Shown piece after piece: positions 3,739 to 14,162 of a stretch of DNA of 64,000 nt. Every line of letters starts with the position of its first letter. Within the stretch, counting starts at the first letter, position 1. A program made the translations under genes and the position numbers. Below the pieces are notes generated by a model. That model worked only from the letters and a program-made list of their open reading frames with translations, was not told where the DNA came from and did no database searches. This DNA is from Escherichia virus TH57. Where the stretch lies: the sequence record MT446422.1; one strand, written 5' to 3'.

Positions 3739-4191
3739 ATGATTATCAATACAAACTCATGGCACGCTCGTTTCCACGACCGTTTTTATGACCGCCATTC
3801 TCGACCACACTCTTTGTGTGCTTACTTTTGGAAAATTGTATGGGCCTGCTTTATTTGTTCTGTGCTTGCAGGTAGTACAATCTTCGCCTTATCTGCTGCA
3901 GGTGCTGGTATATTGGAGCAGTTCTTTGTATTAAGTATTCCTGTTGGTTTAGGGTTAGGGTTTATTTTAGGACTAGCTACAGTAGCTCTTATTCTGGCTG
4001 TAGCATTTGGTTTAATGTACGGTCTAATGAATTTATGGTCCTGGTACGATTTACATAAAGAAGAAAAAGAATGGAAACGTATTCAAGCTGAGCGTGAAGG
4101 CCGAGAAACTAAAGAAAACGTTTTCATTCAATATATCAAAGCTCGTAAATCTAAGATGTGTCCGGTAATCCATTTTGAGGCGAAGAAATGA
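3739..4191 (+). CDS. hypothetical membrane protein
   Basis: 150 aa, two long hydrophobic segments, basic C-terminus. Confidence 0.55.
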   Translation: MIINTNSWHARFHDRFYDRHSRPHSLCAYFWKIVWACFICSVLAGSTIFALSAAGAGILEQFFVLSIPVGLGLGFILGLATVALILAVAFGLMYGLMNLWSWYDLHKEEKEWKRIQAEREGRETKENVFIQYIKARKSKMCPVIHFEAKK

Positions 4192-5198
4192 GAACAGTTA
4201 TGAAAGGCTACTTCGGTAGCCATCTTTATGGAACAAGTACTCCTGAATCTGATGTCGATTTTAAGGAAATCTTTGTTCCACACCCACGTGATATTCTGTT
4301 AGGTACGGCTATGAACCATACCAACTTGAACACGAATAATACGGCATCCAAAAACACTAAAGACGATGTTGACCACGAGCTTTATAGTCTGAAATATTTC
4401 TTTAAACTGGCGGCTGAAGGCGAAACTGTTGCTCTGGACATGATTCACACTCCGGCTAACCTGGTAGTCAAATCCGATTTACCAGATGTATGGAAATTTA
4501 TCCAAGACAACCGTTCACGGTTCTATACAACTAACATGAAAGCCTATTTGGGGTATGTCCGTAAGCAAGCTTCAAAATATGGTGTTAAAGGTTCTAGACT
4601 GGCTGCTCTGCGTGGTGTACTGGCAATTGTTAACCAGATTCCTGAACAGTGGGTCGATTATCAAGAAGATGGTTCTGTTAAACAGCGTCGAACTAAGGTA
4701 GAAGATATTAAGCACCGACTCCCTGAAAACGAGTTCTGTGAATGGGTATTTCATAACCATGAGAAAACAGGTCCTCAAACGTTCTATACTGTCCTCGGTC
4801 GTAAATACCAAACCACTTTGTCGTTAATCGAGCTTAAGCAATCTCTGAATAAGCTTGATTCTGAATATGGTGAACGTGCTCGCAAGGCCGAAGCCAATGA
4901 AGGTATTGACTGGAAAGCTCTGAGCCACGCTTATCGTGCTGGATATCAGTTGAAGGAAATTTATATGACCGGTGACCTTCAATATCCTTTACGAACAGCC
5001 CCATTTATCCTTGAAATCAAACAAGGCCTACACGCTTTTAAAGATGTACAAGCTGAACTTGAAGCAATCGTCGATGAAGTCGAAACCAATGCCATCTGGG
5101 CGGCCAAGAACGGCATGCCAGACAAGGTAGACATGAAGTTCTGGGACAAGTTTGTTGAAGAGGTATATCTTGACAACCACAATTCCTATTATTGTTAA
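4188..5198 (+). CDS. putative nucleotidyltransferase-fold protein
   Basis: 336 aa; N-terminal GSHLYG...SDVDF resembles the minimal NTase motif; ATGA overlap with upstream ORF. Confidence 0.45.
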   Translation: MRTVMKGYFGSHLYGTSTPESDVDFKEIFVPHPRDILLGTAMNHTNLNTNNTASKNTKDDVDHELYSLKYFFKLAAEGETVALDMIHTPANLVVKSDLPDVWKFIQDNRSRFYTTNMKAYLGYVRKQASKYGVKGSRLAALRGVLAIVNQIPEQWVDYQEDGSVKQRRTKVEDIKHRLPENEFCEWVFHNHEKTGPQTFYTVLGRKYQTTLSLIELKQSLNKLDSEYGERARKAEANEGIDWKALSHAYRAGYQLKEIYMTGDLQYPLRTAPFILEIKQGLHAFKDVQAELEAIVDEVETNAIWAAKNGMPDKVDMKFWDKFVEEVYLDNHNSYYC

Positions 5199-5524: not shown

Positions 5525-5827
5525 ATGAAAAAGTATGAAATTGACATGATTGATGCATGTCTTAAATCTGCTGACCATTTTAAGTTGAAAATGCACAAGT
5601 TAAGAGGAATGGTCAAAACTCCAGAAGAGAAGAAACGTTATGCTCTGAAGGAGAAATGTAAAGCTCTTATCATGATGGATAAGTTGCAAATAGTCGCCGC
5701 AGAAGCTCACAGGACACGTAAAGCTGAGGCCCTTAGTGTTTATATGGCAGAACAGCTACAGCGCGCACAGCAAGCCGTTAAGAGCGCGTGGTTCAGTGGT
5801 GAAAATACTGAAAGAACTTTTAATTAA
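5525..5827 (+). CDS. hypothetical protein
   Basis: 100-aa ORF with GAGG SD. Confidence 0.5.
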   Translation: MKKYEIDMIDACLKSADHFKLKMHKLRGMVKTPEEKKRYALKEKCKALIMMDKLQIVAAEAHRTRKAEALSVYMAEQLQRAQQAVKSAWFSGENTERTFN

Positions 5828-5896: not shown

Positions 5897-6421
5897 ATGG
5901 AAGCCAAATCAATCTTTAATCTGATTAATTACAATAATGGTAATTTTAAATCAGAAGCACAAAGTAAGTTCTTTAATGATGTTGCTTGTGTGGGTGAGAT
6001 TACAGTATCAGGTGGTCAGACTTATAAAAACGCCTGGAACTGGATTGTGACTGTTGATTCAGTTGGTATTGTTGATGTATATAAAAACACCAATAAAAAT
6101 CGCTCCTTGTTCTGGTCAAGAGAGACTAATGCTGAGTATCAGGCAACAAGAGCAAAGAAAAATATGCCTACTGAATCTGATGTACAGAACATCAAATCAG
6201 ATATCCAATATTATGATGGTCTGATTGCTGAACAACAAGCGGTGCTTGATAAGTTCAATGAAATCAAAGCATGTAAAGAGATTCCTGAATTCATGCGGGA
6301 ATCGGTTAATGAACAATACAATCTCACTTCAGAGCGTATTGAAACCTATACCAAACAAAGAGCAGAGCGCCAGGTACTCCTTCAGAAGTTTGAAGAGCGT
6401 TTAAAGACGGTTCACGCATAA
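5897..6421 (+). CDS. hypothetical protein
   Basis: 174-aa ORF after promoter cassette. Confidence 0.55.
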   Translation: MEAKSIFNLINYNNGNFKSEAQSKFFNDVACVGEITVSGGQTYKNAWNWIVTVDSVGIVDVYKNTNKNRSLFWSRETNAEYQATRAKKNMPTESDVQNIKSDIQYYDGLIAEQQAVLDKFNEIKACKEIPEFMRESVNEQYNLTSERIETYTKQRAERQVLLQKFEERLKTVHA

Positions 6422-6423
6422 AC

Positions 6424-6447
6424 GCTTTATACCAAGGATGGTATAAT
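6424..6447 (+). promoter_or_regulatory. putative middle-type promoter
   Basis: GCTTTAT MotA-box-like element about 12 bp upstream of TGGTATAAT. Confidence 0.4.
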
Positions 6448-6484
6448 GGTTCTGACCTTTGATTAATCTATTGAGGAAATTATT

Positions 6485-7333
6485 ATGTCACAAGCAATTA
6501 ATGAAATTCGTTCTGAAGTTAAAAAAGTTGTTAAATTCGGGCGTATTCCAAGCACTAAAGATGTGGTTTTAAATGTTCTATATATGATGTGGAATAAGTT
6601 CAATGTTTGTACTAATTCCGCTGAATTCACTAAAATCTTTGAAAAGACCAACGGTCTTCTTACATTAGAAGACCGAGTCATGAAATCTCTTCATCGTTCA
6701 GGTATGTTGTCTCGTGCTAATGCCAAAATTATTCTTAAAAAATATAACAAAGGTTACGACCTTTATGGTCGTGCGATTAGCACCATGACGTTTGATGAAG
6801 TGGTTAAAGACCTTTGGAAAAACCAGCGCCGTTTATTGGCATTAGGTGCTCGTTTAGCAAGCGGTCAAGATAAACAAATGACCTTTAAAACCAATAATTC
6901 TTTAGATTATAAACTATTTAATGTTATTAAAGGTCAAAATGAAGGCGAATACAGTATTTCTTCTTTTAGTGGATGTCAATACGAAAACTGGAAATTCCAC
7001 CTCCGTTTGGCTTTGTCTGAACTCGAATGTCACGGGGTTCTTACCTTTTATGATGTTAAAACTGGAGGCGTCCAGCGTATTAAATTATGTCAAATTAAAG
7101 ACCGAGTTGAAGTCGAGAGCCCCATTGAACAAGCTCCTAAAATGGAACCTGTTCCAGTGCGAAGCAATGAAAAATATTCAGAGCAAATTGAGCTTTTCAC
7201 TAAACAGATTGAAGAGCTCAACATCACCATCCAGCAGCAAGATGATGAAATTTTCCGTCTGTCGGGACTGAACAATGCAGCGAAAGCCGAACGTCAAAAA
7301 CTGATGAACGTTATTGAATTGCTTAAGGATTAA
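6485..7333 (+). CDS. hypothetical protein with C-terminal coiled-coil
   Basis: 282 aa; C-terminal ~45 aa heptad-like (QIEELNITIQQQDDEIFRL...). Confidence 0.55.
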   Translation: MSQAINEIRSEVKKVVKFGRIPSTKDVVLNVLYMMWNKFNVCTNSAEFTKIFEKTNGLLTLEDRVMKSLHRSGMLSRANAKIILKKYNKGYDLYGRAISTMTFDEVVKDLWKNQRRLLALGARLASGQDKQMTFKTNNSLDYKLFNVIKGQNEGEYSISSFSGCQYENWKFHLRLALSELECHGVLTFYDVKTGGVQRIKLCQIKDRVEVESPIEQAPKMEPVPVRSNEKYSEQIELFTKQIEELNITIQQQDDEIFRLSGLNNAAKAERQKLMNVIELLKD

Positions 7334-7334
7334 T

Positions 7335-7550
7335 ATGACCATTTTGATTATCAGTATTATTTTTGGTTATCTTTTGACGGGATTTATTACTACCCTGTTG
7401 CTCCACAAGTTTGATAGTCCCTACGAAAGTGGGGACGAGTATGATGCGGTGTTCACAACATTTTGCTGGCCTATATTCTGGGTAGTCGCTGTTATAATGT
7501 GTGTGACCTGGCCTTTTGCTAAACTCTATGAAAAATTACTTGGAATATGA
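7335..7550 (+). CDS. hypothetical small membrane protein (CWP-motif family)
   Basis: 71 aa from ATG right after upstream stop; two TM segments; CWPIFWVV motif shared with 10288..10455. Confidence 0.5.
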   Translation: MTILIISIIFGYLLTGFITTLLLHKFDSPYESGDEYDAVFTTFCWPIFWVVAVIMCVTWPFAKLYEKLLGI

Positions 7551-7551
7551 T

Positions 7552-8439
7552 ATGAACATTAAAACACGTAAAGAATATTCTCGATTTGAACAGCGTGAAG
7601 GTCGTGCGACTCGTCTTATCGCGATGAATTCTCTGGTTAACTTTGGCAAAATTAAATCAGGTTCTGCCACCCAGGGGTATGGACAACGTATTGTAAGAAT
7701 TAACTCTCTGAATGATTACTGCCGCCGCCCGGCGTTTTTGTTTGGTGCCACAGTTCGTAAGAGCATCAAGGAAATCCTGGCTGCTGGGCTTCGTATTCGT
7801 AAAGCTCCGGTTAACATCAAGAACTATAATTTCAATTCTAGTAACTTGATTATCAATATCAAGAATGATGGTGTGCAGATTAAGTTCAAGCCAACTACTA
7901 AAGGCGATGTTGCCCTTTGTGATACCTTTAAAGAGGTTATGGGTATTGCTCTGTTTTATATGCGTCATGCTGTTGAAGCATACACGTTTGAAGAAGATAC
8001 AAATTATATCCATCAAACAGAAAAATTCCTTAAAACTATAACCATTGATATTAAATTAACTAAAGAATATCTTTTGTCTTATGCTCCTTATCAAGAGAAA
8101 AATGAACCAGAAGAGAAAAAGGAATCAGAAATGGAACGTATCCCTACTGCATCATATGGCCCAGCATTTGCAGGTCAGTATAAAACACAACCTATTTCAC
8201 CACCGGACGTTAAAAATATGTACAAATGGAACGTCCAGCCATCCAGCTCTCTTGGAATCTTTAACCCATCAATGAAACCTATTGAGAGCCATCATGCTGA
8301 TGCTATCCAGGAATCAGTCAACCGCTTAAACGGTCTGATTGAAGATGAGAAAAAGGGTATTCAGGACGTCCTGAATCGCATCAAGAACATGGAAAAACAA
8401 CGCAATAAATTGCAAGCTGCAATCAAAGCATTAAAATAA
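7552..8439 (+). CDS. hypothetical protein with C-terminal coiled-coil
   Basis: 296 aa from in-frame ATG just after upstream stop; C-terminal heptad-like tail. Confidence 0.5.
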   Translation: MNIKTRKEYSRFEQREGRATRLIAMNSLVNFGKIKSGSATQGYGQRIVRINSLNDYCRRPAFLFGATVRKSIKEILAAGLRIRKAPVNIKNYNFNSSNLIINIKNDGVQIKFKPTTKGDVALCDTFKEVMGIALFYMRHAVEAYTFEEDTNYIHQTEKFLKTITIDIKLTKEYLLSYAPYQEKNEPEEKKESEMERIPTASYGPAFAGQYKTQPISPPDVKNMYKWNVQPSSSLGIFNPSMKPIESHHADAIQESVNRLNGLIEDEKKGIQDVLNRIKNMEKQRNKLQAAIKALK

Positions 8440-8440
8440 T

Positions 8441-8470
8441 GTTTACTTCCAAGGATGGAGGGAGTATAAT
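8441..8470 (+). promoter_or_regulatory. early sigma70-type promoter
   Basis: GTTTAC, 18 bp, TATAAT. Confidence 0.5.
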
Positions 8471-8496
8471 GAATTCCTACTTTTGAGGAGAACACT

Positions 8497-9489
8497 ATGA
8501 CACGTAATGAATATATCCGGGCCTTTAACACCACTATCGATGCAAAAGTAAAACCATTAATAGGTGAATCGGCTATCCTTTCGATTATCAATTTCTGGTT
8601 AAATCAGATTGACGCATCGATTGTTGCATCCGGTCGTTTTAAGAAAGACATCATGACTATTGCGAGTCGTGCTGGTAATGATGATATCAAGAAAACTTTT
8701 AAAGGTTCCCGAGTCCTGGCATACCTGGTTAATAAAGACCTTCTTAATAAGTTTGGTGTTGAATCCAGACGTGGTAAAGGTACAATTGGGTATCATTGGT
8801 TTGGTGATGTTGAAAAATACTACCTTGATACGCAAGGCTATACTGTTTCTGAATTCGCAAATTGTTGGGCTCGTGAATTCAGAGATAACAAAATGTCTAT
8901 CATCAAATCAGCGACAAAAATGATGGGTGGTGATTTTCGCACTATCTCCCATTTGGCTGAGCACATGATAAATGTTAAAGATTCTGGTGAAAACCAGGTA
9001 ATTATTGCAGTTAAGTATGAATTCTTTACGCCAGTGGCTACCCCAGAAAATGTCAAAAAGTATCTTGATGTTGCATGTGTTCTTACTCATCAGCTGCAGT
9101 GTGCCCTTAACTATATGCGTACTGTTGAAAAAATTAAAGTAGACCCTATCACCAGTACTCATGGTTGGAAGGGTTATAAAATTGTGGTAACATTACGCAA
9201 AGTTAAATGTGCAAAGCAACCAACTGTTGCAGAAATCCATAAAAAGAAAAGTGAGGAAATTATGAATGCACCGCAAGAAGTTACCACCCTTGAAGACCTG
9301 ATTGATAATCTGAATAATGAACCAGTGAAACAAAAAGCGCCTGAAATTGTTGCCCTGGAAACAGCGTATAATGAAGCTCTTGTTATTAATAAAAAGGCAA
9401 CTGAAGATTATACAAAAGCCAAGCGACTTTGGGAAGAATCAACCAATCGTCTGGATAAACTGGAACAGGCTCTGGAGCTGCTGAAATGA
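8497..9489 (+). CDS. hypothetical protein with C-terminal coiled-coil
   Basis: 330-aa ORF, GAGGAG SD; C-terminal heptad-like tail. Confidence 0.55.
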   Translation: MTRNEYIRAFNTTIDAKVKPLIGESAILSIINFWLNQIDASIVASGRFKKDIMTIASRAGNDDIKKTFKGSRVLAYLVNKDLLNKFGVESRRGKGTIGYHWFGDVEKYYLDTQGYTVSEFANCWAREFRDNKMSIIKSATKMMGGDFRTISHLAEHMINVKDSGENQVIIAVKYEFFTPVATPENVKKYLDVACVLTHQLQCALNYMRTVEKIKVDPITSTHGWKGYKIVVTLRKVKCAKQPTVAEIHKKKSEEIMNAPQEVTTLEDLIDNLNNEPVKQKAPEIVALETAYNEALVINKKATEDYTKAKRLWEESTNRLDKLEQALELLK

Positions 9490-9803
9490 AAAATCGTTTA
9501 AGAGAAGATATTGCTGCGGCCTCTAATACAGATTTATTGAAATTTATTAAAGAAGCCGAGCTCGATGAAGTTAAATTGAATGGAAAAATTCATGGCTGTG
9601 ATGATTATAGCCGAGATATTCCTGATTGGAATGCTATTATTAAAATTGTCGAACGTCGTGAAAAAGCTTCTAAGAACGTTCCTAACTGTCCTATGTGTGG
9701 AACTGAACAAGTCCAGTTGATTCAATGGCGACATAATCCGCTTCAGTATAAATGTCGCATGTGTAAACACAAATTTGAGCGAGATGAAAATGGCAAAGCG
9801 TAA
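9486..9803 (+). CDS. hypothetical zinc-ribbon protein
   Basis: 105 aa; C-terminal CPMCG...CRMC. Confidence 0.5.
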
Positions 9804-10035
9804 AGAATATGTTGAGACCGCCGAAAGGGTGGTCCGTGAATTAACTCTGGCCTATTATAAAGAACACGGCAAATTTCCGGATAGTTATTCGGTATTGAAA
9901 TCTGCTTTAACTCGTTCATATAATAATATCCTTACTGAAGTGCATGATATCAGAAATGCGCACCTTAAAGAAACCGGAACAGAGCTTGACCGCTCTGAAG
10001 TATTCAAACAAGTATTAGGAATTCAAGATGTTTAA
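9775..10035 (+). CDS. hypothetical protein (nrdC.1 position)
   Basis: 86-aa ORF; true start may be a downstream in-frame ATG. Confidence 0.45.
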
Positions 10036-10291
10036 AGTATATGGCTATGATTCAAACATTCATCGTTGTGTTTTCTGCGACAATGCAAAACGTCTACTTG
10101 ACGTTAAAAAACAGCCTTACGAATTCATCAACGTGATGCCTGAAAAAGGTGTGTTTGATGATGAGAAGATTGCTCAACTCCTGGCTGCACTTGGTCGCGA
10201 ATCCCAAATTGGTTTGACTATGCCACAAGTGTTTGCTCCTGACGGAAGTCATATTGGTGGCTTCGACCAACTGCGAGAATATTTCAAATGA
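10028..10291 (+). CDS. nrdC: thioredoxin/glutaredoxin NrdC
   Basis: 87 aa, CVFC active site, near-identical to recalled T4 NrdC. Confidence 0.9.
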
Positions 10292-11874: not shown

Positions 11875-12348
11875 ATGTTGTTGACTGGCAAATTATACAA
11901 AGAAGAAAAACAAAAACTTTATGATGCACAAGCTGGTAAGTGTCCAATTTGCCACCGTGATTTGGACTCTGATGTTCAGGCCAACCATCTTGACCATGAC
12001 CACGAATTGAACGGGCCAAAAGCCGGTAAGGTTCGCGGGTTACTATGCAATCTGTGCAATGGAACAGAAGGGCAAATGAAGCATAAGTTCAGCCGTTCGG
12101 GTCTGAAAGGTCGTGATGTTGACTACCTGGAATGGTTGGAGAGTTTGCTTGTCTATCTGAAATCTGATTATACCGAAAACAATATTCACCCCAATTTTGT
12201 AACAGACAAAGCCAAAGAGTTTGGCCGCCTGGGGAAAGAAGAAATGATTCGGGAAATGCTTTTGAATGGTATGACTTATAATGAATCTGACACCAAAACA
12301 CAATTAATGGCTTCATTTAAGAAGCAGCTTAGAAAGAGTTTAAAATGA
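11875..12348 (+). CDS. 49: endonuclease VII, Holliday junction resolvase
   Basis: 157 aa, near-identical to recalled T4 gp49 including Zn-binding cysteines. Confidence 0.92.
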   Translation: MLLTGKLYKEEKQKLYDAQAGKCPICHRDLDSDVQANHLDHDHELNGPKAGKVRGLLCNLCNGTEGQMKHKFSRSGLKGRDVDYLEWLESLLVYLKSDYTENNIHPNFVTDKAKEFGRLGKEEMIREMLLNGMTYNESDTKTQLMASFKKQLRKSLK

Positions 12349-14162
12349 CAATTGAAAACGAAATTGAAGGATTGATTCATAAAACTAATAAAGACCTTTT
12401 AAACGAGAATGCTAATAAAGATTCTCGTGTTTTTCCAACTCAACGTGACCTTATGGCTGGTATTGTATCTAAACACATTGCCAAAAATATGGTCGCGTCT
12501 TTTATTATGAAAGCACATGAAAGCGGAATTATTCATTTCCATGATATTGATTATTCCCCTGCTCTTCCATTTACTAATTGCTGTTTAGTAGATTTAAAAG
12601 GAATGCTTGAGAACGGATTTAAGCTTGGTAACGCACAGATTGAAACTCCTAAATCAATTGGTGTTGCTACTGCAATTATGGCACAAATTACTGCACAGGT
12701 TGCTTCTCACCAATATGGTGGAACGACTTTTGCTAATGTAGACAAAGTATTTTCTCCTTATGTTAAACGTACATACGCAAAACATATTGAAGACGCAGAA
12801 AAATGGCAAATCACTGATGCATTGAATTATGCCCAATCTAAAACAGAAAAAGACGTATACGATGCATTCCAAGCTTATGAATACGAAGTAAATACTCTCT
12901 TTAGTTCAAACGGACAAACGCCTTTTGTAACCATTACATTTGGTACGGGAACTGACTGGACTGAACGAATGATTCAGAAAGCAATTCTGAAAAATCGTAT
13001 CAAAGGTCTTGGTCGCGATGGGATAACTCCTATTTTCCCTAAACTTGTTATGTTCGTTGAAGAAGGTGTTAATCTTTATAAAGACGACCCGAACTATGAT
13101 ATTAAGCAGCTTGCTCTAGAGTGTGCAAGCAAAAGAATGTATCCTGATATTATTTCAGTTAAGAATAATAAAGCTATCACCGGTTCATCTATTCCTGTTT
13201 CTCCAATGGGTTGCCGTAGTTTCTTGAGCGTATGGAAAGATTCGACTGGTAATGAAATTCTTGATGGACGTAATAATCTTGGCGTTGTAACACTGAATCT
13301 TCCTCGTATTGCATTAGATTCTTATATTGGAACACAGTTCAATGAACAGAAATTTATCGAATTGTTTAATGAGCGAATGGATTTATGTTTTGAAGCATTG
13401 ATGTGCAGAATTAGTTCCTTAAAAGGAATTAAAGCGACTGTTGCTCCTATTCTTTACCAAGAAGGTGCGTTCGGGGTTCGTCTTAAACCTGATGATGATA
13501 TAATTGAGTTATTTAAAAACGGTAGAAGTTCAGTGTCTTTGGGATACATTGGTATTCACGAATTGAATATTCTTGTCGGTCGTGATATTGGGCAGGAAAT
13601 TTTAACTAAAATGAATGCTCGTCTTAAGCAGTGGACCGAAAGAACCGGTTTTGCTTTTAGCTTGTATTCTACTCCCGCTGAAAACCTTTGTTATCGATTC
13701 TGTAAACTTGATACTGAAAAATATGGAAGTGTAAAAGATGTTACCGATAAAGGATGGTACACTAACAGTTTCCATGTTTCAGTAGAAGAAAATATTACTC
13801 CGTTTGAAAAGATTTCTCGCGAAGCACCATATCATTTCATTGCGACAGGTGGTCACATTTCTTATGTTGAACTTCCTGATATGAAAAATAACTTAAAAGG
13901 TCTTGAGGCTGTATGGGATTATGCTGCACAACATTTAGATTATTTTGGTGTTAATATGCCAGTAGATAAATGTTTTACGTGTGGAAGTACCCATGAGATG
14001 ACTCCTACTGAAAACGGATTTGTTTGTTCTATTTGTGGAGAAACTGACCCTAAAAAGATGAACACAATAAGAAGAACATGCGGCTATCTTGGAAACCCGA
14101 ACGAACGCGGATTTAATCTCGGCAAAAATAAAGAAATCATGCATAGGGTTAAACACCAATGA
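12345..14162 (+). CDS. nrdD: anaerobic ribonucleoside-triphosphate reductase
   Basis: 605 aa uninterrupted; C-terminal CxxC Zn site; T4 NrdD-like. Confidence 0.92.
   Translation: MTIENEIEGLIHKTNKDLLNENANKDSRVFPTQRDLMAGIVSKHIAKNMVASFIMKAHESGIIHFHDIDYSPALPFTNCCLVDLKGMLENGFKLGNAQIETPKSIGVATAIMAQITAQVASHQYGGTTFANVDKVFSPYVKRTYAKHIEDAEKWQITDALNYAQSKTEKDVYDAFQAYEYEVNTLFSSNGQTPFVTITFGTGTDWTERMIQKAILKNRIKGLGRDGITPIFPKLVMFVEEGVNLYKDDPNYDIKQLALECASKRMYPDIISVKNNKAITGSSIPVSPMGCRSFLSVWKDSTGNEILDGRNNLGVVTLNLPRIALDSYIGTQFNEQKFIELFNERMDLCFEALMCRISSLKGIKATVAPILYQEGAFGVRLKPDDDIIELFKNGRSSVSLGYIGIHELNILVGRDIGQEILTKMNARLKQWTERTGFAFSLYSTPAENLCYRFCKLDTEKYGSVKDVTDKGWYTNSFHVSVEENITPFEKISREAPYHFIATGGHISYVELPDMKNNLKGLEAVWDYAAQHLDYFGVNMPVDKCFTCGSTHEMTPTENGFVCSICGETDPKKMNTIRRTCGYLGNPNERGFNLGKNKEIMHRVKHQ

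Follow-up and report, generated by a model that had tools for sequence, protein, structure and literature searches.

NrdC.6, NrdC.5 and NrdC.4 of a T4-like coliphage as diverged tandem paralogues with constrained, heptad-patterned tails

The 64,000-nucleotide stretch of Escherichia virus TH57 DNA analysed here (sequence record MT446422.1; hereafter the window) carries three consecutive genes, corresponding to nrdC.6, nrdC.5 and nrdC.4 of phage T4, whose products each end in a heptad-like helical tail. The question that this locus raises is what such a tail signifies on three proteins among which pairwise BLASTP finds nothing significant. A first-pass annotation of the window had proposed that a common C-terminal oligomerisation element of about 40 amino acids is carried by three different heads, such that the proteins would be interchangeable effectors which dock to a common partner or form hetero-oligomers. 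The comparisons described below show, instead, that NrdC.6, NrdC.5 and NrdC.4 are diverged tandem paralogues with a single head–linker–tail architecture, in which the shared head has a helical bundle at its N-terminus and then two beta-hairpins separated by a long helix. They further show that in each protein constraint is greatest in the tail, which is under stronger purifying selection than the head. The modest new insight is that the families PF26897, PF23882 and PF26899, together with NrdC.3, form one paralogous family with predicted coiled-coil tails.

Identity of the three genes

By profile match and gene order, the three open reading frames (ORFs) are orthologues of T4 NrdC.6, NrdC.5 and NrdC.4, genes which have long been annotated and which in T4 are early and dispensable:

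6485..7333, plus strand: NrdC.6 orthologue, 282 aa (phrog_2257, PF26899, synteny with phage VR7, AlphaFold2 model)
7552..8439, plus strand: NrdC.5 orthologue, 295 aa from the ATG at 7552 (DUF7235, phrog_2351, BLASTP to T4 NrdC.5, synteny)
8497..9489, plus strand: NrdC.4 orthologue, 330 aa (phrog_1435, PF26897, synteny, AlphaFold2 model)

With positions 6000-10000 of the window as the megablast query, 725 phage records were matched, all of them T4-like coliphages and the best 92-94% identical. The closest annotated relative is Escherichia phage vB_EcoM_VR7 (genus Gaprivervirus, Straboviridae), in which the three syntenic ORFs are annotated nrdC.6, nrdC.5 and nrdC.4; judged by nucleotide similarity, the window is thus that of a T4-like coliphage, a VR7-like Gaprivervirus. 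NrdC.6 matches phrog_2257 at E 8.2e-121 (residues 1-282 on profile positions 1-303), a precomputed PF26899 assignment is found on all 104 of its homologues, and its gene has the position of a family member, between nrdC.8/nrdC.7 and nrdC.5. Likewise, NrdC.4 matches phrog_1435 at E 1.2e-140 (residues 1-330 on profile positions 1-334), with PF26897 precomputed on all 60 homologues, and its gene has the place of that family, between nrdC.5 and nrdC.2/nrdC.3. Identity to the T4 orthologues is about 52% for NrdC.4 and 46-52% for NrdC.6. NrdC.5 matches Pfam DUF7235 (PF23882) at E 1e-113, scoring 380 bits against a gathering cut-off of 30, and PF23882 is also precomputed on its homologues; it is 28% identical to T4 NrdC.5 (BLASTP E 2e-26), which the profile of the window's NrdC.5 family matches at E 2.9e-29.

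The boundaries which the first-pass annotation gave for the two outer ORFs stand. For the middle ORF, where mechanical calling places the start at 7516 (TTG) or 7528 (ATG), its choice of 7552 is the better one, since most homologues begin MNIKTRKEY and the ATG at 7552 is coupled to the stop of an upstream 71-aa ORF (TGAtATG). NrdC.5 proteins of the Gaprivervirus/Dhakavirus type (285-300 aa) are without the first ~40 residues, comprising N-terminal helices, of the Tequatrovirus NrdC.5 (340 aa), and the head has therefore been remodelled between genera. The heads of all three proteins are basic, with an isoelectric point (pI) of 9.3-9.6 and a net charge of +10 to +13, in a window of median pI 6.3.

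Scans against NCBIfam and Rfam gave no matches, and at E ≤ 1 the three proteins matched 0 families among the PADLOC defence-protein models. When the PDB was searched by sequence with T4 NrdC.5 and the three family profiles, only noise came back and no solved relative.

Many GenBank records name NrdC.4, NrdC.5, NrdC.6 and NrdC.2 ‘thioredoxin’, a name which appears to have been propagated from the locus names ‘NrdC.n’. A thioredoxin or glutaredoxin identity was rejected for the three proteins, which have no corresponding Pfam or NCBIfam match and no CxxC motif; it is also contradicted by the modelled topology of NrdC.4 and NrdC.6, a helical bundle with a beta-beta-alpha-beta-beta domain. NrdC.2, too, has no thioredoxin domain or CxxC despite its label. 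Single records label NrdC.4 ‘replication protein’ or ‘coil protein’; for the former, found in one record, there is no supporting evidence.

Homology of the heads

The relationship among the heads is visible only with deeper family alignments and structure models; shallow profiles do not settle it. The first-pass description of the N-terminal domains as dissimilar is correct at the BLAST level only, since by profile and by structure the domains are homologous, and its ‘three different heads’ give way to one fold and one ancestry.

The structural part of this argument comes from AlphaFold2 monomer models of NrdC.4 (mean predicted local distance difference test score, pLDDT, 79.1) and NrdC.6 (mean pLDDT 80.5). 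The two show an identical succession of secondary-structure elements, which begins with five or six N-terminal helices and two or three more helices, and continues with one beta-hairpin on either side of a long helix, then a disordered linker and the terminal helix. In NrdC.6 this corresponds to a basic two-part head (aa 1-~205), a disordered linker (~207-226) and a predicted coiled-coil tail; in NrdC.4, to a helical N-domain, a beta-beta-alpha-beta-beta domain, a linker and one 48-residue terminal helix. When the models were searched with Foldseek against BFVD, that of NrdC.4 matched NrdC.6 of phage JS10 (E 6.6e-6, probability 1.0, 333 columns, 13% identity), an NrdC.3-sized protein (E 4.6e-9) and ~315-375-aa proteins of T4-like phages of Serratia, Erwinia and Klebsiella; that of NrdC.6 matched 300-335-aa proteins of T4-like phages of Enterobacter, Pectobacterium, Citrobacter and Acinetobacter.

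Profile comparison brings in NrdC.5 and NrdC.3. In hhalign, the NrdC.4/3 alignment matches that of NrdC.5 with a probability of 77% and E 2e-5 over 223 collinear columns, and once the tails are removed the match still scores 40.9, where column shuffling gives 14.1 ± 2.7 (0/100 shuffles reach it, z = 9.8). Searched with the NrdC.4 profile, the local ORF set yields T4 NrdC.3 at E 5e-16, and a set of 1.84 billion representative proteins yields it at E 1.9e-7; in the latter HMMER gives 7 matches, all of the T-even type, and no bridge to NrdC.5 or NrdC.6. A seven-sequence alignment contains motifs common to the family members, and NrdC.3, NrdC.4 and NrdC.5 all start M(K)TR.(E/H)Y. A common head fold is thus found across NrdC.3, NrdC.4, NrdC.5 and NrdC.6, in the case of NrdC.5 by profile only. 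In other words, the tail is shared because it was inherited by tandem duplication together with a homologous head, and was not a module grafted on to unrelated heads.

The family extends beyond the window phage. In T4 there are four ~300-aa genes in a row, nrdC.3,.4,.5 and.6, of which NrdC.3 is the fourth paralogue, with a heptad tail ending ...LRNAIEVLK. In Acinetobacter phage Acj61 (Twarogvirinae) the genes p120 (330 aa) and p121 (304 aa) lie side by side between nrdC and nrdC.10; p121 is a Foldseek match of the NrdC.6 model, and the heptad tails of p120 and p121 are each reached by 0/100 shuffles. The copy number is accordingly 4 in T4, 3 in the window phage and 2 in Acj61, and the tailed architecture is old within the Straboviridae.

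The C-terminal tails

The tails occupy the following segments:

7166..7330, plus strand: NrdC.6 tail, aa 228-282, ~7.5 heptads, with a kink at SGLNN
8296..8436, plus strand: NrdC.5 tail, aa 249-295, ~6.5 heptads, the best heptad window of the whole window
9340..9486, plus strand: NrdC.4 tail, aa 282-330, 7 heptads (heptad heuristic, register, AlphaFold2 model)

A heptad heuristic calibrated inside the window was used to score them. In all three proteins the best 28-residue heptad window is at the extreme C-terminus and scores above a shuffled background, being reached by 2/300 composition-preserving shuffles for NrdC.6 and by 0/300 for both NrdC.5 and NrdC.4. Among the 66 plus-strand ORFs of ≥100 aa, NrdC.5 ranks 1st, NrdC.4 3rd and NrdC.6 5th; the Rad50-like gp46 (SMC_N/AAA_23), which served as a positive control, ranks 2nd. 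The tails have a continuous 3-4 (a/d) register over ~7 heptads, and at 47-55 aa each they are somewhat longer than the ~40 aa of the first-pass annotation, which had placed them correctly. Their enrichment in E, K, L, I and Q, also pointed out there, is borne out by a combined share of 51-58% in the tails against 34-36% in the heads. In NrdC.6 the a positions are I,I,I,I,N,R,I and the d positions Y,F,L,Q,L,A,L,L; in NrdC.5, V,I,I,I,R,I and I,L,E,V,M,L,L; and in NrdC.4, I,Y,N,Y,W,L,L and L,A,A,A,S,L,L.

In the models, the tail of NrdC.4 is a single terminal helix (282-329) and that of NrdC.6 a pair of helices (232-258 and 264-281), in both cases long, solvent-exposed and preceded by a low-confidence linker. 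The features of a coiled coil are therefore found together, namely a continuous heptad repeat with hydrophobic a and d positions and, for the two modelled proteins, a long helix. With its regular register, its long exposed helix and the conservation of its a, d, e and g positions described below, the tail would behave like the oligomerisation element that the first-pass annotation had supposed it to be.

Conservation of the tails

Conservation within the tails is highest at the a/d positions (0.81-0.82) and the e/g positions (0.78-0.79) and lower at b/c/f (0.57-0.72), with the heads at 0.46-0.67; such a gradient is what a coiled-coil interface predicts. In orthologues whose heads are 35-50% identical to those of the window proteins the tails are 67-72% identical. 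A distant orthologue of NrdC.6, for example, has 68% identity in the tail against 39% in the head, and one of NrdC.5 has 72% against 45%, while the most extreme relative of NrdC.4 (P0212) has a head only 28% and a tail 84% identical. Synonymous differences in the tails are 0.5-0.87 in cross-genus pairs, which is saturated as in the heads, and non-synonymous differences are about half. This saturated synonymous divergence rules out recent recombination or gene conversion as the cause of the conservation.

Between paralogues the picture is different. Within each orthologue group the tails are 60-95% identical, whereas between paralogues they have ~25% identity, apart from a terminal KLxxA(I/L)xxLK-like motif, and are about as diverged as the heads except in the last ~14 residues. 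This pattern suggests, in so far as sequence can, paralogue-specific self-association, which fits the divergence of the tails better than does a shared partner; hetero-association, or a partner for the common terminal motif, is the less likely reading.

Proposed function and its alternatives

What is known of function comes from T4 and its relatives. A T4 deletion mutant cannot grow on ECOR17 dsr1 cells, and growth is restored by plasmid-borne nrdC.5, there termed an uncharacterized early gene of T4 (Srikant et al. 2022, PMC9391042). The tetratricopeptide repeat (TPR) sensor of Dsr1 is reported to recognise phage major capsid proteins (2026 preprint, PMC12803255); the PDB search found no structure of an NrdC.5-Dsr1 complex. 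Of the other defences, Septu is reported to be inhibited by T4 nrdC.1 and Druantia III by bas37_0203 (bioRxiv 10.1101/2025.11.20.689424), the latter being the NrdC.8 orthologue by gene order and length (528 nt), and OLD is inhibited by T6 gp49.2 (PMC13096335). The nrdC.x genes are all non-essential in T4 and Bas37. Several neighbours thus counter defences, which makes the locus an anti-defence island, and from the roles of these neighbours and of T4 NrdC.5 the most likely function of NrdC.4, NrdC.5 and NrdC.6, we infer by analogy, is that of self-associating host-defence antagonists with fast-evolving heads.

Taken as a whole, the explanation that these tandem paralogues are coiled-coil homo-oligomers whose heads are aimed at host proteins is probable, if well short of certain. 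Each protein would self-associate into a homo-oligomer through a tail that forms a coiled coil. Beta-branched residues at a, leucine at d and asparagine at a point, as a rule, to a parallel dimer, which would be the simplest state for NrdC.5 and NrdC.6. The fast-diverging heads would be binding modules for host proteins, especially immune sensors, as the case of T4 NrdC.5 suggests, with oligomerisation giving them more avidity for targets that are themselves oligomeric. Once duplicated, the copies would each have come to act on a separate target, every one with its own tail retained.

Several points weigh against this explanation. The heptad score is a heuristic of our own and neither COILS nor a calibrated predictor, and the term ‘coiled coil’ reflects sequence pattern and monomer models, for NrdC.5 the pattern only. 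On the side of the heads, the heads-only comparison of NrdC.4 with NrdC.6 in hhalign is marginal (z = 3.2, 1/100 shuffles), so that their link rests on the Foldseek match, in which TM-scores are only 0.43-0.50, the domains being floppy. The direct heads-only comparison of NrdC.5 with NrdC.6 is not significant (z = 1.5); the link between these two is, as far as the alignments go, only transitive, and the membership of NrdC.5 comes from profile evidence. As to function, anti-defence activity is documented for T4 NrdC.5 only, which is 28% identical to the protein here, and the HIDEN-SEQ study assigns nrdC.3-6 no role against defences, the rows inspected for these genes being not significant. Finally, the basic heads would fit nucleic-acid binding equally well.

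This last point keeps open an unlikely alternative, namely that the three are dimeric nucleic-acid-binding proteins. Basic helical heads and a dimerising coiled coil would here target DNA or RNA, whether of the host or of the phage, perhaps in early regulation or in modulating the nucleoid or replication, and any anti-defence effect would be indirect.

The model of the first-pass annotation, in which unrelated effector heads share a docking or oligomerisation tail that engages a common partner or forms hetero-oligomers, is distinctly improbable, notwithstanding some features that it would account for. All the tails, that of T4 NrdC.3 included, end in a similar motif, (R/K)xxKLxxA(I/L)xxLK; in both NrdC.5 and NrdC.6 the core a position that lies 11 residues before the C-terminus is an arginine; the b/c/f surface of the tails is, on the values given above, fairly conserved; and the genes are adjacent and probably co-expressed early, as in T4. 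Against this, common ancestry alone accounts for a common tail once the heads are homologous, and tails which have diverged between paralogues outside the last ~14 residues, while being conserved between orthologues, are what one would see if each paralogue were kept from pairing with the others. The idea of effectors that exchange places on one dock is thereby weakened on both counts. The hetero-oligomeric form of the model must, in addition, contend with a copy number that varies from four to two, with NrdC.6 lost in phage Pinarejo, and an obligate hetero-complex is therefore hard to accommodate.

That the tails might have arisen by chance, as amphipathic or low-complexity stretches in an AT-rich genome that share no meaning, is effectively refuted and has a negligible probability: segments rich in K, E, I, L and Q are indeed common in AT-rich phages and the scoring scheme is home-made, but only 0-2/300 shuffles reach the scores, all three segments lie at the extreme C-terminus with a register unbroken over ~7 heptads, they are the most conserved part of each protein despite saturated synonymous divergence, and the same feature recurs in T4 NrdC.3 and in Acj61 p120 and p121.

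Comparison with known systems

The proteins closest to those of the window are the T4 ones. NrdC.4 and NrdC.6 of T4, which like NrdC.3 are conserved hypothetical early proteins encoded in the nrdC-mobD region, are direct orthologues. T4 NrdC.5 shares DUF7235, the flanking genes nrdC.6 and nrdC.4 and the tail end KQR.KL..A(I/L).AL with its counterpart here; it differs in its low identity and in the about 40 N-terminal residues which the window protein does not have, and the anti-Dsr1 role is reported for the T4 protein alone. T4 NrdC.3 has the N-terminus MKTR.(H/E)YI, the same internal motifs and a predicted coiled-coil tail, and is present in T4 with no counterpart in the window phage. A further difference is that the tail of nrdC.6 is frameshifted in the T4 reference.

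The heptad pattern resembles that of parallel dimeric coiled coils of the GCN4/bZIP type, with beta-branched residues at a, leucine at d, asparagine at a (N263 of NrdC.6, N298 of NrdC.4) and charged e/g positions; the resemblance is one of pattern only. The Ala/Ser-rich d layer and aromatic a positions of NrdC.4 are atypical, and NrdC.5 and NrdC.6 differ in having a core arginine.

Another parallel lies within T4 itself, where IPI, IPII and IPIII have variable bodies and share a short N-terminal capsid-targeting sequence. They are fast-evolving anti-defence paralogues which retain a single short element at one terminus, and in this they are analogous to what the first-pass annotation proposed. 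In their case, however, the element is N-terminal, ~10 residues long and a cleaved packaging signal, as opposed to a 50-residue C-terminal heptad helix; packaging is not required for NrdC.5, since the plasmid-expressed protein works in trans.

Lastly, DSAD1 is an inhibitor of the DSR2 sirtuin defence from an SPbeta-like phage (PMC11087589, PMC10973363). It is likewise an early phage accessory protein, and its action would be similar if NrdC.5 were to bind the sensor part of its sirtuin target and block activation. The target (DSR2 as against Dsr1), the host and the architecture are different, DSAD1 belongs to no tandem family of coiled-coil-tailed paralogues, and no relationship in sequence or structure is apparent.

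Gene order and neighbouring genes

The gene order around nrdC.4 is the same in the window, VR7 and T4. The neighbouring features are:

4188-5198: nrdC.11, RlaP-type nucleotidyltransferase
5525-5827: nrdC.9
5897-6421, plus strand: nrdC.8 (174 aa)
7335-7550, plus strand: 71-aa hydrophobic ORF (MTILIISIIFGYLLTGF...) between NrdC.6 and NrdC.5
8442..8470, plus strand: sigma-70-like promoter match (10/12, TTTACT-17-TATAAT) in the gap between NrdC.5 and NrdC.4, a consensus match only
9486-9803: nrdC.2
~9784-10035: nrdC.1
10028-10291: nrdC, glutaredoxin-like
11875-12348: gene 49, endonuclease VII
12345-14162: nrdD

With no NrdC.3 in the window phage, nrdC.4 is followed directly by nrdC.2. The 71-aa ORF has no Pfam family and is labelled a hypothetical or transmembrane-helix protein in VR7 and EAWsc9; T4 has no gene in its place. 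As for the promoter match, the scan returned 21 sites where 15.8 would be expected, so on its own it is weak evidence.

A family of 30-nt direct repeats (plus strand, 77% identity) is found at 7549-7578, 8485-8514 and 9781-9810. The repeats coincide exactly with the points where NrdC.5, NrdC.4 and NrdC.1 have their start codons, and encode M..(K/T)R(K/N)EY. The same N-terminal peptide is common to T4 NrdC.3, NrdC.4, NrdC.5 and NrdC.1. The repeats could be a relic of duplication, a constraint on translation initiation or microhomology for recombination.

In the NrdC.8 orthologue, too, the highest-scoring heptad window is C-terminal (aa 145-172; 2/300 shuffles, rank 6/66). Homology of this helix to the tails of NrdC.4-6 was considered and is unsupported (hhalign E 0.06-0.29).

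Natural variants

Several related genomes carry altered copies of these genes. In phage Pinarejo (PP925831, 3433-3646) the NrdC.6 head is deleted, and all that is left between nrdC.7 and nrdC.5 is a stretch of tail without annotation, which has 70% identity to aa 238-281. In the T4 reference (NC_000866, ~9997-10140, minus strand) the nrdC.6 tail is out of frame, such that the annotated NrdC.6 ends ...ELIFLFNNMMMKFSDYLD and the alternative frame reads ...ISIQQYDDEIFRLSGLSSKAKSEREKLIKIVDLLKS up to a stop; another T4 annotation gives nrdC.6 as 891 nt, i.e. intact, and the frameshift is either a sequencing error or strain-specific. In phage vB_EcoM_G8 (5971-7003) NrdC.4 is split into two ORFs of 193 aa and 158 aa, so that the gene is either a pseudogene or frameshifted by a sequencing error; of the BFVD matches to the NrdC.4 model, the 158-aa fragment is the top one. 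In the 155-kb genome IMGVR_UViG_2974741249 several genes of the locus (5941-6912 and neighbours) have lost internal segments in frame, with a shortened NrdC.4 tail and an NrdC.5 (P0152) without about 36 head residues. One NrdC.8 copy in the locus set is similarly without part of its C-terminal helix. These deletions could be real or an artefact of assembly.

Implications

The genes are ordinary T4-type conserved hypotheticals, and the locus in itself is no discovery. What is added is that three curated families and NrdC.3 are joined, that the tail is seen to be their most constrained part, and that they sit in an anti-defence neighbourhood. A wider proposition, more tentative and on balance doubtful, is that NrdC.3-6 make up an arsenal of oligomeric immune antagonists which spans the Straboviridae and expands in tandem, in which each fast-evolving head neutralises a different host sensor (Dsr1 in the case of T4 NrdC.5) and effectiveness comes from the tail. 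The tail would act here through multivalent binding of oligomeric sensors, or else its terminal motif would engage a common host factor. Whatever becomes of that proposition, NrdC.4, NrdC.6 and NrdC.3 are reasonable candidate anti-defence genes; if it were true, each of the three would be a new anti-defence protein with a target yet to be discovered.

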